Shown here: positions 5,674 through 54,940 of the stretch, in pieces
Layout: every line of letters begins with the position of its first letter
Numbering within the stretch: the stretch's first letter is position 1
Source of the DNA: Flavobacteriaceae bacterium
GTDB taxonomy: Bacteria > Bacteroidota > Bacteroidia > Flavobacteriales > Flavobacteriaceae
Reading direction: 5' to 3'
Length of the DNA stretch: 56,856 nucleotides
Assembly: GCA_013001365.1 (NCBI GenBank)
Contig: JABDMQ010000344.1
Coordinates: 1 to 56,856, forward strand
Position numbers and translations under genes: made by a program
The notes under the pieces: model-generated
Told to the model about the DNA's origin: nothing
The model's input: only the letters and a program-made list of their open reading frames with translations
Databases searched by the model: none

Positions 5674-7152
5674 ATGGGCAAAAATCTTACCAGTAGGGCT
5701 GAGGATTATTCAAAATGGTATAACGAACTGGTGGTTAAAGCCGACCTAGCTGAGAATTCTGCTGTACGAGGCTGCATGGTGATCAAACCTTATGGTTATG
5801 CTATATGGGAGAAGATGCAAGCAGAATTAGACCGTATGTTCAAGGAAACAGGCCATCAGAACGCTTATTTTCCTTTATTCGTGCCCAAGAGCCTTTTTGA
5901 GGCGGAGGAGAAAAACGCTGAAGGATTTGCTAAGGAATGCGCAATAGTAACACATTACAGACTTGAGAACGATCCTGAGAAAGAAGGAAAACTTAGGGTG
6001 GATCCTGATGCGAAACTTGAAGAGGAATTAATTGTACGACCTACTAGTGAGGCGATCATCTGGAATACTTATAAGGGGTGGATTCAATCATATAGAGACC
6101 TTCCCTTGCTAATAAATCAATGGGCCAATGTCGTTAGGTGGGAAATGCGAACTCGCTTGTTCTTAAGAACCGCGGAGTTTCTTTGGCAAGAAGGTCATAC
6201 GGCTCATGCTACTAGAGAAGAAGCATTTCAGGAAGCGGAGTTAATGAATAATGTCTATGCTGAATTCGCTGAGAATTTCATGGCCATTCCTGTAATTAAG
6301 GGTGTTAAGACAGAGAGTGAGAGATTTGCAGGGGCAGAGGAAACCTTCTGTATTGAGGCCTTGATGCAAGATGGTAAGGCATTGCAAGCTGGAACCTCTC
6401 ATTTCCTAGGACAGAATTTCGCGAAGGCCTTTGACGTTAAGTTCACTTCAAAAGAAGGCAAACAAGACTATGTTTGGGCAACATCATGGGGAGTTTCTAC
6501 GAGGTTAATGGGTGCACTGATCATGACGCATAGTGACGATAGTGGATTAGTGTTACCACCAAATCTGGCGCCATATCAAGTCGTAATTGTGCCGATTCAT
6601 AAAACTGAAGAACAACTTGAGAATATTATAGCCTTGTCTAATGAGCTAATCAAGGATTTCAGGAGTAAAGGAATATCGGTTAAATTGGATGATAGGGACA
6701 CACATAGGCCTGGAGCGAAATTCGCTGAACACGAACTAAAAGGAGTTCCGTTAAGAATAGCCATAGGCCCTAAGGACCTTGAAAATGGAACAGTAGAGCT
6801 CGCTAGACGTGATACCTTTGAAAAACAATCTGTTTCATCAGGTGAAATCGCTGAAAAAGTAGAAAGTACTTTAAAGGAAATGCAAGAAACCTTGTATACC
6901 AAAGCCTTGGAATTTCGGGAATCACATACGACCGAGGTGAATGATTTTGAGGAATTCAAAGAAGTTCTTGAAACGAAAACGGGCTTCTTATCTGCTCATT
7001 GGGACGGTACGGCGGAGACTGAGAACAAGATCAAGGAATTAACTAAGGCAACAATAAGATGTATTCCAATGGATTCAAAGAATGAACCTGGTAAATGTGT
7101 TTATTCTGGAAAACCATCAAATAGAAGGGTGTTATTTGCCAAAGCCTATTAA
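5674..7152 (+). CDS. proS: Proline--tRNA ligase (archaeal/eukaryote-like class II type, 492 aa)
   Basis: The N-terminus [25 protein letters not shown], the motif [16 protein letters not shown] and the C-terminal ...RVLFAKAY are typical of the short ProRS form found in Bacteroidota. Confidence 0.93.
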
Positions 7153-50202: not shown

Positions 50203-52758
50203 TTAGTCTCTTCCTTTCGGAATTCGAATTTTATTGCCCAAGAACAAGGCATTCAAGAACAAGCGATTGGTTCCGTACCATGATCCACGGAAATTCGGGT
50301 TATCTGCAAACATGACGGCGCGTCCACTTCCCATTGGACTTACGATTAACGATGCGGAAGGTTTGAGATAAGTCTCTAGGTTTTTCTTTGAAATGTATCC
50401 ATCTACATGTGGGTCTTTAGTGTATTTCGCTACAGTGGAGTATGCATTCTTGCTTGGTTGTACGAACACTTCATTGTTCTTGTAAACCGGGATTGTCTTG
50501 TTTCGGTATCCAAACGCCAAAGGATGCGTTAAATCGAGATCTACATAAAAAATGGCACCGCCTAGTTCTTCTCTTCCAAGGTTTTCCCTAGCATCTACAT
50601 ATTGTAATCGCTTCACATCTTTAGTCTTTGAAGTGTCCTTAGGTTTCTTGGTCAATTTTTCCTTAACTAGTTTTTTGTCCACTAACCATTTTGTGGCATT
50701 AGCTATGGTTACGAGCGTATTTCCTTTTGAGGCCCACGTCTTCAATTTTCCTCTTTGGATGGAATCCAATTGATTATAACTTCCAGACACCATCACTAAC
50801 GTATTGTATTTATCCAGATTCAAGTTTCTCCAACGATTTACCTGCAATTTGGTAATTGGCATATGTACTCTTGTATCTAACAAATGCCAGACTTCACCTG
50901 CTTCGTAGGAACTAACGCCATCACCAATCAGTAATGCGGCCTTTGGTTTCTTAAGTGCTTGAAAATTCCTGCTTCCAAGGTCGATTCCTTCTTTGCTGAA
51001 TCCTGAATTGGCACCATATACAGGGACTTGATACTTCTCTTGAGCTGCTTTAACAATAGCAAAGACCTCTTGTGGTGATTTCTTCTGAAGACTAATAGGA
51101 ATCAAGATACTTCCATAGTTGAAACTTTGAGTTCCGCTTGATGTATTTATCGTGAAAGGCTTGAAGGCCGAAGACGCTTTTAATCCCTTACTTTGCATAT
51201 GGTACAAGGCTGCAGGCGCATTGTAATCATCCCAATCCATGATGTAAGCGTATTCCGCTTTTTGAATTGCCGAGACATTTACCAAGCCATCAGTACTTGT
51301 TATTTCCAGTCCGAGATTTGTGCTTCTGACCCCGCGATGCTGCATATTATAAAAGTTCGAAACACTCCAAGCTGATGCATCGTAAAACACGCTATCCCGA
51401 TACTTATCGTAAGATTCAAAGAGGTTTTGAACCATCCTGCGCTGAGGTTGTTTTAATGGGACAACGAATTTGTTTCCGTTTTTATAGACTTTTATTTTAT
51501 GAACTAAAAGCTTGTCAATAAAAGCCTTGTTTCGGTTCATATCATACTGGTCACCAAATTCGTATGCCGAGAAACCTGTTGCTACCTTTTCATTTATAGC
51601 GGTCTTGAAGAATTTCTGTTGGTATTTCCTTAGAGTCGACCTGTTCTCAACAGCTGCCTTTACTGTAGCGATGCTTGACACATATTGGTTTCTTATAGTG
51701 AAAGGGAAGGAGATCTTACCATAATCGGTATCCTGCAAATGACCTCGAGAACTCGCCTGTTCAAACAATAATGCTAAAGCACCTTGCAAGTCTGGATATG
51801 ACGACCCATAGCCAGGGTAAGTACCATCGAAAGCCTCTTTTGTGAAATAAAAAGACCCAATATCATCCAATGCTTCCTTAAAATAACCAGCAAATAGGTC
51901 GTTGAGGTCTTCATAATTCTCCTTGGGCATGATTGGGTCCCACGAAGCGTTTGGTTTCATGGGTTCAAAGAAATAGGAACTATTAGTGCCCATTTCATGA
52001 AAATCGGTTACTACATTCGGATACCATTCATGAATCCATTTTAGTTTTCCACGACTCTCAGGATTAATCGCCAGCAACCAATCACGATTCAAGTCAAACC
52101 AATAATGGTTCGTTCGGCCTCGTGGCCACCCTTCATTATGCTCAGCATCCTGACCATCGGACACCAATGGATTGGCCTGATATTGGTTGGCCCATTGTGT
52201 ATGACGATCCCGACCATCTGGATTGATGGTTGGGTCGATGAATATCACGGCATTATCTAGATAATTAGTGACTTCAGGACTGTTTGAAGCGACCATGGTA
52301 TAAGCTGTAAGTAATGCAGCCTCAGAACTGGACGGTTCGTTACCATGCACATTATATGCTAAGTTTATAAAAACAGGTAGGTCGTAATTAGATGCATTCT
52401 TCGAGGCATCCACGAAATCTAAATGTTGTTTTTTTAAATTATCAAGGTTGCCTTGATTTTGAGAGGTGGTGACCGTCAGGATAACTAAAGGACGATGTTC
52501 ATGAGTTTTCCCGTACTGGTAAATGGTTGCCCGATCAGACACTTCAGCAAGTTTGGTCAAGTAAGCGACAATGCGATCATGACGTGTATGCTGCTGACCA
52601 ATAGGATAACCAAGAAATGCCTCTGGAGATGGTATATCAGGATTGAAAGGTGCTTTATTTTTAAAGAAATAATCTTGAGATTGAAGGTTAAAGGTCAATA
52701 AAAGAAGTACGAGGGTGACTAGTGATTGTTTGATTGGCATTGTAATGGATTTTGACAA
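50203..52758 (-). CDS. Secreted M14-family zinc carboxypeptidase, long form (851 aa)
   Basis: It has a signal peptide, the zinc motif NVHGNEPSS (HxxE), a downstream FHEMG, and a long C-terminal extension. Confidence 0.8.
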   Translation of the reverse strand: MSKSITMPIKQSLVTLVLLLLTFNLQSQDYFFKNKAPFNPDIPSPEAFLGYPIGQQHTRHDRIVAYLTKLAEVSDRATIYQYGKTHEHRPLVILTVTTSQNQGNLDNLKKQHLDFVDASKNASNYDLPVFINLAYNVHGNEPSSSEAALLTAYTMVASNSPEVTNYLDNAVIFIDPTINPDGRDRHTQWANQYQANPLVSDGQDAEHNEGWPRGRTNHYWFDLNRDWLLAINPESRGKLKWIHEWYPNVVTDFHEMGTNSSYFFEPMKPNASWDPIMPKENYEDLNDLFAGYFKEALDDIGSFYFTKEAFDGTYPGYGSSYPDLQGALALLFEQASSRGHLQDTDYGKISFPFTIRNQYVSSIATVKAAVENRSTLRKYQQKFFKTAINEKVATGFSAYEFGDQYDMNRNKAFIDKLLVHKIKVYKNGNKFVVPLKQPQRRMVQNLFESYDKYRDSVFYDASAWSVSNFYNMQHRGVRSTNLGLEITSTDGLVNVSAIQKAEYAYIMDWDDYNAPAALYHMQSKGLKASSAFKPFTINTSSGTQSFNYGSILIPISLQKKSPQEVFAIVKAAQEKYQVPVYGANSGFSKEGIDLGSRNFQALKKPKAALLIGDGVSSYEAGEVWHLLDTRVHMPITKLQVNRWRNLNLDKYNTLVMVSGSYNQLDSIQRGKLKTWASKGNTLVTIANATKWLVDKKLVKEKLTKKPKDTSKTKDVKRLQYVDARENLGREELGGAIFYVDLDLTHPLAFGYRNKTIPVYKNNEVFVQPSKNAYSTVAKYTKDPHVDGYISKKNLETYLKPSASLIVSPMGSGRAVMFADNPNFRGSWYGTNRLFLNALFLGNKIRIPKGRD

Positions 52759-52868
52759 TGAAGATAAAAAATACTACAGACTTTGGTTAGTTAAACCTGC
52801 TTAAATTCGTGATTTAATCCCAAAAGTTTCGTATCTTAAAAAGTTAGGAATCAATAAATCCATGTATC

Positions 52869-52970
52869 ATGAAAACCAAGGAGTGTACTTGTACTTGCGA
52901 AGGATGTTCTAATGGTCACTGTGAAAACTGCAAATGTGAAAATTGTAATTGCGAAGGTTGCAATTGCTAA
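52869..52970 (+). CDS. Unlisted 33-aa Cys-rich ORF, metallothionein-like (MKTKECTCTCEGCSNGHCENCKCENCNCEGCNC)
   Basis: I translated it by hand. It has 11 Cys in 33 residues, arranged as CxC and CxxC motifs with four CE[GN]C[SKN] pentads. It lies in the 230-nt gap between the M14 and DJ-1 genes. I found no clear promoter box or terminator. Confidence 0.45.
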   Translation: MKTKECTCTCEGCSNGHCENCKCENCNCEGCNC

Positions 52971-52989
52971 GCATTAAATACACCTGATT

Positions 52990-53736
52990 CTATTCTACTA
53001 CTAAATGTGGTACGGACTCCAATTGCCAATCAATAACCAATCCTCCAGCCAAAGATTGAGCGATTTCCTTACCATAAAGATATTCGCTTAAGTAAAGCGC
53101 TGCTTCAAACGATTTGGCGCCACCTGCTGAGGTAATGTATTTGCCATCATGCACAAATAGCATGTCTTTCCTGATATCAAGATCCGGAAACATATCGCGC
53201 ATCTTGTCTATATCGCTAGGGAAAGTGGTAGATACGTAGTTGTCCAACAAACCAGCTTTAGCAAGAACAAAAGCACCGTCGCAATGTGAAGTCATGAATT
53301 GTGCTTCTTTATCTATTCGTTTTACGAAATCGATCATGACTTTATCTTCAAGGTCAGTATCCAAGTGATGCTCGGCACTTGGCACAACTAGAATATCTAT
53401 TTTTGGTAAAGAATCCCTTACATAATTATAATCCGGAAGGATTCGCATACCTTCAAATGTTGTGATTGGGTCATCTGTATTCGCCACAGTAAACACATTC
53501 ATGGCCTTGATGTTCTTACGATATTGGGTATGTTGAAAAATATCATAAGGTGCCGTAAGTTCCGTATTGTAAACGCCTTCCATGATAAGGAATGCGACGT
53601 TATAACGATTTGGTTCCAGTTTTGGAACCGTTTTTTCGACCCATTCATTTTCAGTATCATCCAACGAATTATTTTTCTCAGTATTGTTGCAGGCAAGAAG
53701 AGATATTGTAATTAGAAATAATACAACTTTATTCAT
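52990..53736 (-). CDS. DJ-1/PfpI-family protein with a lipoprotein leader
   Basis: It has the lipobox LLACNN and a nucleophile-elbow Cys in MTSHCDGAFVLAKAG. Confidence 0.8.
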   Translation of the reverse strand: MNKVVLFLITISLLACNNTEKNNSLDDTENEWVEKTVPKLEPNRYNVAFLIMEGVYNTELTAPYDIFQHTQYRKNIKAMNVFTVANTDDPITTFEGMRILPDYNYVRDSLPKIDILVVPSAEHHLDTDLEDKVMIDFVKRIDKEAQFMTSHCDGAFVLAKAGLLDNYVSTTFPSDIDKMRDMFPDLDIRKDMLFVHDGKYITSAGGAKSFEAALYLSEYLYGKEIAQSLAGGLVIDWQLESVPHLVVE

Positions 53737-54940
53737 GATTTATTTTTTTGATCATTCGATTTCGAAGAATATACAATAACAAGATACAAAGGATCATCAT
53801 TATGGTTGCAACATGCCATGTGAAATCGAATCCATACCTATCAATGAGTTGCATTCCTGAATTATGTCCGAAAATATGAGCGACAGAAAAAGCAATGCTG
53901 TACATGGCCATATATTCGCCTTGATTACCCCTTTTTGCTCTCTGCAAGGCATAGGAATTACTGAAAGGGAAAAAAATCATCTCGCCAATGGTCATCAACA
54001 GCATTCCTATGATCAATATACCTACCCAGCTTGTTAAATTAAGGACTACAAAACTCAATGCTACCAGGATGACTCCTATTGCCATTAAGCCTGATTTGGT
54101 ATTCCTCCGGCCTTCAAGCCATTTAATCAAGGGCATTTCAAATAATGCAATCACTAAACCGTTCATGGCCATTAACAGTCCAATCTGCTGTTCAGAAAGT
54201 GAATGGGCGTCTTTATAATAAATTGGGATGGTCGAGAAATACTGTAGAAAGACAATGCCGAACAATAACATTGCTGCCAAGAATATCCAATAGGACTTGT
54301 CACGATATGCCGATATCGGATTGTTGTTGACCACTTCATCCTGAACCTTTGTTGATCTTGGATGCAACACATACAAGAGCAAGATTCCTGCGATAATACA
54401 TGTAATGCCATCTACCCAAAACAAACCTTCATATCCCATGGTAGCTATGATAAGACCACCAACTGCTGGACCTGCTGAGAAACCAAGGTTTATGGCTAGA
54501 CGAATAAGGGTTACAGAACGTGTCTTGTTTTCTGGTTTGCTATAAGCACTAAGGGCTACATACATGGCTGGACGAAATGAATCAGCTACAAGCATAACCA
54601 AGAAGATACCAATGCAGATACTTTCGAAGGTAGATAGGAATTGAAGTCCAATGAAAAGGACTCCTGTAGAGAACAAACTAAAAAGCATCACGTGATAATA
54701 ACCGATTCTATCGGTTAGTTTACCACCTAACCAAGAGCCAGCAACAGAACCAAGTCCAAAACAAGACATGATCCATCCCACATCACTCAAAGTGAATCCC
54801 ATGTTCTTGGTTAAATACAATGATAAAAACGGAATTACCATGGTCCCAGCGCGATTGATCAGCGTAATAAGTGAGAGCCACCATACTTCTCGAGAAAGTC
54901 CGTCGAAGGTCTTGAGGTAATCTTTGTATAGTTTGACCAT
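53729..54940 (-). CDS. MFS transporter (403 aa, 12 TM)
   Basis: It has a typical MFS topology and a loop 2-3 motif (GKLTDRIGY). It overlaps the downstream DJ-1 gene by 8 nt. Confidence 0.85.
   Translation of the reverse strand: MVKLYKDYLKTFDGLSREVWWLSLITLINRAGTMVIPFLSLYLTKNMGFTLSDVGWIMSCFGLGSVAGSWLGGKLTDRIGYYHVMLFSLFSTGVLFIGLQFLSTFESICIGIFLVMLVADSFRPAMYVALSAYSKPENKTRSVTLIRLAINLGFSAGPAVGGLIIATMGYEGLFWVDGITCIIAGILLLYVLHPRSTKVQDEVVNNNPISAYRDKSYWIFLAAMLLFGIVFLQYFSTIPIYYKDAHSLSEQQIGLLMAMNGLVIALFEMPLIKWLEGRRNTKSGLMAIGVILVALSFVVLNLTSWVGILIIGMLLMTIGEMIFFPFSNSYALQRAKRGNQGEYMAMYSIAFSVAHIFGHNSGMQLIDRYGFDFTWHVATIMMILCILLLYILRNRMIKKINHE

Follow-up and report, generated by a model that had tools for sequence, protein, structure and literature searches.

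The locus

This study concerns a small, unannotated open reading frame (ORF) of 33 amino acids (aa), eleven of them cysteine, in a stretch of 56,856 nucleotides (nt) from a Flavobacteriaceae bacterium (contig JABDMQ010000344.1); we refer to this whole stretch of DNA as the window. We found that the ORF belongs to a family of peptide genes conserved among Flavobacteriaceae, and that in most of the relatives compared the peptide gene is followed by the gene for a SigZ-type extracytoplasmic function (ECF) sigma factor, which the window does not have. The element itself is as follows.

52869..52970, forward strand: peptide ORF, ATG to TAA, 33 aa, 11 Cys, MKTKECTCTCEGCSNGHCENCKCENCNCEGCNC; member of a conserved family

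A reading made earlier from the letters of the window (here the sequence-only reading) had proposed this ORF as a minimal bacterial metallothionein, and its description is borne out by the translation of 52869-52970 (+), both in length and in cysteine content. All four of the CE[GN]C[SKN] pentads that it named are there, and so is the lack of aromatic residues and of a hydrophobic core: aromatics number zero, and Met1 is the sole hydrophobic residue. Its further statement, that the cysteines are arranged only as CxC and CxxC, holds in that both motifs are present but overlooks one Cx4C gap (CSNGHC).

A chance ORF was rejected. Cysteine makes up 3.1% of the window translated in six frames, from which the probability of at least 11 cysteines in 28 aa is 3e-10 per position and 3.5e-5 such stretches are expected over the whole window; 20 shuffles of the window gave a maximum of only 5-7 cysteines per 28 aa. 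On the opposite strand at 52869-52970 there is no overlapping ORF of 25 aa or more. We likewise rejected an RNA gene, because an Rfam scan had no match at the peptide ORF, and a tandem-repeat artefact: the 15-nt period found at 52943-52971 (1.9 copies) is the repeated pentad, and the peptide that it mirrors is conserved across genera.

A conserved family with a fixed cysteine skeleton

The exact sequence of the window peptide is not on record, no PHROGs model matches it, and a search of cluster representatives of 1.8 billion proteins returned 0 matches at E <= 0.001, the query being too short for significance. Two profile searches of 5.8 billion proteins, for which the first sequence was padded with in-frame upstream residues, retrieved 17 relatives, none of them functionally named. 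Our literature searches on Bacteroidetes metallothioneins, on flavobacterial SigZ and on small cysteine-rich proteins linked to ECF sigma factors also turned up no account of the peptide family.

Eighty Flavobacteriaceae loci (L001-L080) around homologues of the DJ-1 gene that adjoins the ORF in the window were scanned in six frames for cysteine-rich ORFs, and 11 of the 80 carry, within 4 kb, a peptide ORF with one common skeleton, CxCxCxxCxxxxCxxCxCxxCxCxxCxC. These 11 loci come from Lacinutrix, Aquimarina, Olleya, Winogradskyella, Pontimicrobium, Kordia and uncultured relatives, so that with the window the skeleton is found in 12 Flavobacteriaceae loci from at least six genera. Together with three loci selected by their sigma factor (see below) and the locus L391 they make up 15 relatives, and family ORFs of 33-35 aa are thus present in at least 15 Flavobacteriaceae loci besides the window.

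In the alignment of the 12 sequences ten cysteine columns are invariant and the eleventh is altered in one sequence (L024), while G16 and N32 are nearly invariant. Every cysteine column mixes TGT and TGC, and the single replacement in L024 is the only cysteine codon to be lost among the 12. The proportion of nonsynonymous differences (pN) is 0.006 at cysteine codons as against 0.47 at the other positions, where the synonymous proportion (pS) is 0.63; synonymous sites are saturated. This shows that the frame is kept by selection and that selection acts almost solely on the cysteine skeleton, which is kept as well across a wider set of 31 aligned sequences. The sequence-only reading had staked its proposal on the frame being conserved in related genomes, and frame, length and the 11 cysteines are indeed kept across genera. 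Its view that annotation had overlooked a real gene is upheld too, by a conserved frame with TGT/TGC exchanges in all cysteine columns and by the lack of a gene call in the genomes examined. We consider it very probable that the peptide represents a real, expressed gene family.

The few departures from the pattern deserve mention. The seventh cysteine is lost in L024 (7832-7936, reverse strand), where it is serine, and in L391 (5001-5102, sequence P0001), where it is tyrosine, and it may be the most dispensable ligand. That tyrosine is the only aromatic residue in the core of the window peptide and its Flavobacteriaceae homologues. Histidine occurs in the window peptide only (H17) and is not conserved in the family.

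An operon with a SigZ-type sigma factor gene

What the family does share, beyond its cysteines, is a partner. In 10 of the 11 DJ-1 loci with a peptide gene, a sigma factor gene encoding 179-196 aa lies on the same strand, 2-110 nt 3′ of the peptide gene, and the order peptide gene then SigZ-type ECF sigma gene holds for 13 of the 15 relatives. The sigma factor has sigma-70 regions 2 and 4 (PF04542, PF08281) and its best NCBIfam matches are two SigZ models, both matched over their full length (176 and 161 bits). Its conserved cysteines stand in an HTExxCL motif in the linker and in a CC...CK[IV]C motif at the C-terminus. It thus resembles the SigZ/ECF238 factors in its full-length match, its short C-terminus with CC...CxxC and its linker cysteine, and differs from SigZ- and CorE-type factors in scoring below the curated SigZ cut-off and in missing the CxC motif of the CorE linker. 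Since that motif is absent, we rejected a strict CorE-like identity (former ECF44) for the partner; in CorE-type factors the CxC linker motif is essential (PMC4937300).

The linkage was then approached from the other side, in a blind test with the sigma factor alone as query. Among 1102 homologues at E <= 1e-20 we took three contexts, from Polaribacter sp. ALD11, a Lutibacter metagenome-assembled genome and Tenacibaculum litoreum, and all three carry the peptide ORF: the gap of about 310 nt 5′ of the sigma gene, in which no gene is called, holds the promoter and an ORF of 33-34 aa with 11 cysteines. In the papers that we read on SigZ/ECF238 sigma factors, no small cysteine-rich partner is described.

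An ECF-like promoter precedes the peptide gene in 15 of 15 relatives, with the sequence tGCATCTTTTT, GTCT[A/T] placed 17 nt after GCATC, and the motif lying 24-33 nt before the peptide ATG. Two relatives have variants of it, with 18-nt spacing and GTAT for GTCT in L015 and with GCGTC for GCATC in L391. The motif occurs nowhere else in the roughly 700 kb of loci L001-L080. We take its layout to be similar to that of ECF promoters of the TGCAAC-N17-CGTC type. Ten of 13 loci carry a strong inverted repeat in the gap from the peptide stop to the sigma start (z-scores for folding, -3 to -7), of which the sequence varies and the structure is kept; a T run follows some of these hairpins. The family unit is thus a promoter, the peptide gene, a hairpin and a sigZ-like gene, in that order.

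A second copy of the SigZ-type promoter stands in the Lutibacter locus (L396, 1792-1818, forward strand) before a DUF3703 gene at 1836-2177, which lies directly 5′ of the peptide gene. In Tenacibaculum, too, DUF3703 is encoded ahead of the peptide gene (L397/L398, 1904-2239). DUF3703, which neither the window nor L001-L080 contains, may be a member of the same regulon.

The window copy is an orphan

Around the peptide ORF the window has the following features.

50203..52758, reverse strand: M14 zinc carboxypeptidase gene (PF00246), divergent from the peptide gene
52759..52868, forward strand: region of 110 nt 5′ of the peptide gene, common with the divergent M14 gene and without the family promoter
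52971..52989, no strand: spacer of 19 nt from the peptide stop to the stop of the convergent DJ-1 gene; hairpin and sigZ absent
52990..53736, reverse strand: DJ-1/PfpI family lipoprotein gene (PF01965, E 1e-16), convergent with the peptide gene
53729..54940, reverse strand: major facilitator superfamily (MFS) transporter gene (PF07690, E 3e-63), overlapping the DJ-1 gene by 8 nt

Strict and relaxed regular-expression scans of the window found no match to the family promoter. The nearest thing to it is GTATCTT at 52831-52837, a partial resemblance to the -35 element which GTCT does not follow. The position after the peptide gene, occupied in relatives by the hairpin and a SigZ-type gene of about 179 aa, is reduced to the 19-nt spacer, and tblastn of the 56.8-kb window found neither a sigZ-like gene nor a remnant of one. 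While 13 of the 15 relatives have both promoter and sigZ, the window has neither. The other two are L391, in which the contig stops 45 nt past the peptide gene, too soon for a sigma gene to be seen, and L015, an uncultured Aquimarina (about 6480-7114, reverse strand), which keeps a variant promoter and an intact peptide, with sigZ deleted to a remnant of about nine codons. The sigma gene has thus been lost twice independently, in L015 and in the window.

The order of the flanking genes fits such a loss. In L047 it is MFS -> DJ-1 -> <- sigZ <- peptide, and in L396 it is peptide -> sigZ -> <- MFS -> DUF1684 <- CrcB, where the last three are orthologues of window genes (67%, 47% and 74% identity, respectively). 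The MFS orthologues adjoin DJ-1 in most loci and adjoin sigZ in L396. The simplest reading is that the neighbourhood in the window is the ancestral one, and that this lineage lost sigZ and had its promoter region rearranged.

The M14, DJ-1/PfpI and MFS genes that the sequence-only reading placed around the ORF are where it put them, as Pfam matches confirm, but this context carries no functional information about the peptide, because close relatives with the same backbone have nothing in the slot: in L041, L063 and L076 M14 and DJ-1 lie directly side by side and leave no peptide gene between them, and a search for a peptide remnant in the loci with DJ-1 next to M14 found none. The DJ-1 gene marks synteny and is not a functional partner, and the M14 and MFS genes are backbone, M14 having no link to the peptide family. 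The conserved context was invisible from the window because the window had lost it. As for the slot between DJ-1 and M14, among six loci (L041, L063, L076, L039, L002 and L013) it is empty, at 40-60 nt, in three, holds about 270 nt of non-coding DNA in one and an unrelated gene of about 190 aa in two.

The window copy is an intact orphan. Another promoter may drive it, a sigZ gene at some other place in the genome may serve it, or it may have newly fallen silent. The last of these, a silent relic stranded after removal of sigZ and promoter in which disabling mutations have yet to accumulate, is a question separate from what the peptide does, and it does not compete with the functional alternatives discussed below. 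It would account for the absence of a sigZ-like gene from all 56.8 kb, for the failure of even relaxed matching to find the family promoter and for the mere 19 nt left between the peptide and DJ-1 stops; a scan for sigma-70-type promoters also found none facing the ORF, although that scan does not cover Bacteroidota promoters. Against decay, the start, the stop, all 11 cysteines, G16 and N32 are intact in the window copy, while two relatives that do retain the promoter (L024, which also keeps sigZ, and P0001 in L391) have each lost a cysteine, and a sigZ gene may still lie elsewhere in the genome. We consider a silent relic rather unlikely, without dismissing it.

The same module in phages

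Searches beyond the Flavobacteriaceae were complicated by the simplicity of the query. The peptide alignment gave 541 pattern matches in viral contigs, none confirmed by tblastn (a short, low-complexity query), and tblastn against annotated phages and plasmids gave no match, probably owing to the low-complexity filter. As a DNA pattern, the bare cysteine skeleton (TGY at 11 fixed codons) was saturated in metagenome contigs by (TGY)n poly-cysteine repeats and yielded no true family member there; the first scan of viral contigs was saturated too, yet yielded four. The (TGY)n and related triplet repeats that swamp the bare pattern come from giant-virus and metagenome contigs (L088-L326), and nearly all of them disappear when G is disallowed as the second base in a few of the codons between the cysteines.

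With the pattern refined in this way (NHN at five of the x positions), true 11-cysteine modules were found in at least 20 IMG/VR contigs. Some are free proteins of 37-118 aa, many with an N-terminal SFxNWLExK-like helix (L357, L368, L355/L356, which is P0131, L329, L345, L385, L363/L365, L390, L328 and L338); some of these contigs, at 312-483 kb, are of jumbo-phage size. One of them, L345, has two modules in tandem, and in several proteins (L357, L368) the module is fused behind DUF3008 (PF11450). In others a module of 28 aa separates the protease domain from the C-terminal helical tail in prohead proteases of the ClpP/S14, S78 and S49 families, which are mutually unrelated. Three examples are given here.

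L109, 6281-7096, forward strand: prohead protease fusion with the 11-Cys skeleton inserted
L136, 1259-2524, forward strand: prohead protease fusion with the 11-Cys skeleton inserted
L145, 8268-9566, forward strand: prohead protease fusion with the 11-Cys skeleton inserted

Further fusions of this kind are in L333, L351, L347/L375/L389 and L364, and no Pfam or PHROG model covers the module in prohead proteases. The phage copies have no sigma factor nearby and, as described above, the peptide is intact in two lineages that have no sigma gene beside it (the window and L015). The sigma-free phage copies and the fusions show that the module is autonomous and mobile between proteins.

Virus-like contigs from metagenomes, up to 115 kb long, also hold relatives of 48-58 aa (P0003-P0007), with P0003 and P0004 in L081-L084, L392 and L393, and P0005 and P0007 in L085-L087. 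Genes near these relatives include those for a Toprim primase, a PD-(D/E)XK nuclease, ClpX and CsrA, besides a sigma-70 gene and a Volactin-like gene that contains an intein. The collection has P0004 in 70 of its blocks, so its virus is abundant in the samples.

A metallothionein-like reading and its rivals

We propose that the peptide is a metallothionein-like metal binder, encoded in an operon with its sigma factor as part of a feedback loop, with an orphan copy in the window. This is the best explanation we have, and we put its chances, taken whole, at about even. That metal binding is the main function of the peptide is somewhat better placed, and seems probable to us.

The general marks of metallothioneins are found in the peptide: it is small (below 10 kDa), 33% cysteine, rich in CxC and CxxC motifs and free of aromatic residues. 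Mammalian metallothionein has an alpha-domain in which 11 cysteines hold an M4Cys11 cluster, and a beta-domain with the pattern CxCxxCxCxxC. Like these domains, the peptide has some 30 residues of which about one third are cysteine, with CxC and CxxC motifs and no aromatics; like them it lacks a hydrophobic core, so that folding must depend on metal. Its 11 cysteines equal the count of the alpha-domain, and its C-terminal half, CxCxxCxCxxCxC, resembles the pattern of the beta-domain. The overall spacing nevertheless differs, no homology is detectable with Pfam or the PDB, and the peptide is a single domain, in bacteria and phages, under the control of an ECF sigma factor rather than of MTF-1.

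In contrast to the SmtA/BmtA type the peptide is something else again, as the sequence-only reading had held: the PF02069 hidden Markov model does not match it and conserved histidines and aromatics are absent. SmtA/BmtA (PF02069), the Pseudomonas metallothioneins and MymT are, like it, small cysteine-rich bacterial proteins; its gene stands beside a dedicated regulator as smtA does beside smtB, and, like mycobacterial MymT, it is a short ORF easily missed by annotation. SmtA/BmtA, however, have about 56 aa, 9 cysteines, histidine ligands, aromatics and a zinc-finger-like fold, and their regulator is an ArsR-type repressor, whereas that of the peptide is a sigma factor.

With no hydrophobic core and with non-cysteine positions that vary freely, the peptide would fold only around a metal-thiolate cluster or by means of disulfides, and the strictly fixed cysteine spacing points to a defined cluster geometry. 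By analogy with the 11-cysteine alpha-domain of mammalian metallothionein, each peptide might hold about four divalent ions, or more of Cu(I). The sigma factor lends the metal link indirect support, because SigZ is classified in ECF238 together with CorE2 (PMC7826278), which is activated by Cd and Zn via its cysteine-rich C-terminus (PMC7826278; PMC8999054). In ECF238 generally a short C-terminus rich in cysteine is regarded as the metal sensor, and an anti-sigma factor is not known (PMC7826278); for CorE the cue is the redox state of copper (PMC7826278; PMC8999054).

The mechanism that we have in mind is as follows. The peptide gene would be the promoter-proximal gene of a two-gene operon with the SigZ-type sigma gene. 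The sigma factor would be switched on, via its own cysteines, by a thiol-reactive signal, most likely an excess of Zn, Cd or Cu, and would then transcribe its own operon. The hairpin would stop or stabilise most transcripts after the peptide gene, giving a large excess of peptide over sigma factor, and the peptide, by sequestering the metal, would remove the signal, closing a self-limiting buffer loop. The complete loop as described is a tentative proposal, which we rate rather below an even chance.

Several observations weigh against this reading, and we set them out together. No Pfam family matches the window peptide at E <= 1, the metallothionein families included; none of five family members has a match in NCBIfam at E <= 10; and no PDB sequence matches the peptide at E <= 10. 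The AlphaFold2 model of the metal-free window peptide is uninformative (predicted local distance difference test score, pLDDT, 57; predicted template-modelling score, pTM, 0.21). In the loci compared, the conserved genes near the peptide gene include neither a metal transporter nor any other metal-related gene. The partner sigma factor scores below both curated SigZ cut-offs (176 against 212 bits and 161 against 169), and has a single linker cysteine in place of a CxC motif, with four cysteines at its C-terminus; because that motif is missing, metal responsiveness is an extrapolation for the flavobacterial sigma factor. As regards expression, the absence of both promoter and sigma gene from the window copy also counts against it. 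Finally, a small gene just 5′ of a sigma gene would equally fit a regulator of that sigma factor.

This last possibility is the most serious of the rivals. The peptide might be an anti-sigma-like or metallochaperone-like SigZ regulator of 33 aa, with sequestration not its main job, which would bind the cysteine-rich C-terminus, perhaps through a shared metal or mixed disulfides, and, on a shift in metal status or thiol redox state, release the sigma factor or activate it. The tight linkage would suit this well, with a gap between peptide gene and sigZ of only 2 nt in L047 that suggests translational coupling, as would the richness of both proteins in cysteine and the stoichiometric excess of peptide over sigma that the hairpin would give and that an inhibitor needs; moreover, since ECF238 has no known anti-sigma factor (PMC7826278), a partner this tiny could have been overlooked. 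Anti-sigma factors of the ZAS (RsrA) type offer a partial parallel, being cysteine-rich, co-transcribed with an ECF sigma factor and possible thiol or metal switches. They are, however, helical domains of about 80-100 aa with an HxxxCxxC motif, usually encoded 3′ of the sigma gene, whereas the peptide has 33 aa, lacks that motif and any conserved histidine, and is encoded 5′ of the sigma gene. A regulator also sits poorly with the module being present in phages that have no sigma partner, even as a domain inside prohead proteases, with its intact state in the two lineages without an adjacent sigma gene, and with non-cysteine residues that evolve almost freely, which is unusual for a specific interface. 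We consider a dedicated SigZ regulator unlikely, if still worth keeping in view.

Less likely still, in our opinion, is that the peptide uses its thiols to buffer or sense redox state or electrophiles under an oxidative-stress sigma factor, as a sacrificial sink for hypochlorite, peroxide or electrophiles to which metals would be incidental. A chain of 33 residues with 11 thiols would be very reactive, and cysteine-based redox control of a sigma factor is established for the ZAS system, RsrA/SigR. The strict cysteine spacing, however, points to cluster geometry and not to bulk thiol, and a thioredoxin or reductase gene is not conserved nearby. No signal has been assigned to SigZ-type sigma factors (PMC7826278), which leaves room for an oxidative one. 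Least likely of all, indeed very improbable, is the precursor of a modified or secreted ribosomal peptide, for example one with cysteines cross-linked to serine or threonine. Cys, Thr and Ser are plentiful in the peptide, and a structural gene followed by a hairpin, a layout common in bacteriocin operons, is what the family has; but the peptide has no leader (just 5-7 residues before the first cysteine), its Ser/Thr positions are not conserved, and the module also serves as an internal domain of phage proteases. Nor is a maturase, transporter or immunity gene conserved alongside, the sigma factor gene being the only conserved neighbour, so that the doubt which the sequence-only reading cast on such a precursor was sound.

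Implications

Bacterial metallothioneins are few, and their shortness usually keeps them from being noticed. What is new here is, plausibly, an unannotated metallothionein-like peptide family with a new regulatory coupling, the metal binding itself being predicted. It would add to the known metallothioneins a family that is very compact and has its own cysteine skeleton, carried by abundant marine members of the Flavobacteriaceae (among them Polaribacter, Tenacibaculum, Winogradskyella and Aquimarina). SigZ has no known function and no known anti-sigma factor, and the fixed pairing of its gene with the peptide gene, the promoter and the hairpin gives a first concrete, testable handle on sensing and control by SigZ-type (ECF238) sigma factors.

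We also entertain, as a speculative idea that we would not expect to hold in full, that the 28-residue module is a mobile, hitherto unrecognised metal-cluster mini-domain which, as the 33-aa SigZ partner, sets the activity of the sigma factor, and which has a further role in phage capsids. If this were true, exchange of metal or a change in thiol redox state would tune the SigZ-type sigma factor; the peptide would represent a new, extremely small class of sigma regulator and would give SigZ-type sigma factors a function; and independent recruitment into three prohead protease families and into fusions with DUF3008 would imply the second role, in the capsid. The presence of the module in three unrelated families of phage head-maturation protease suggests a wider role for this small domain.

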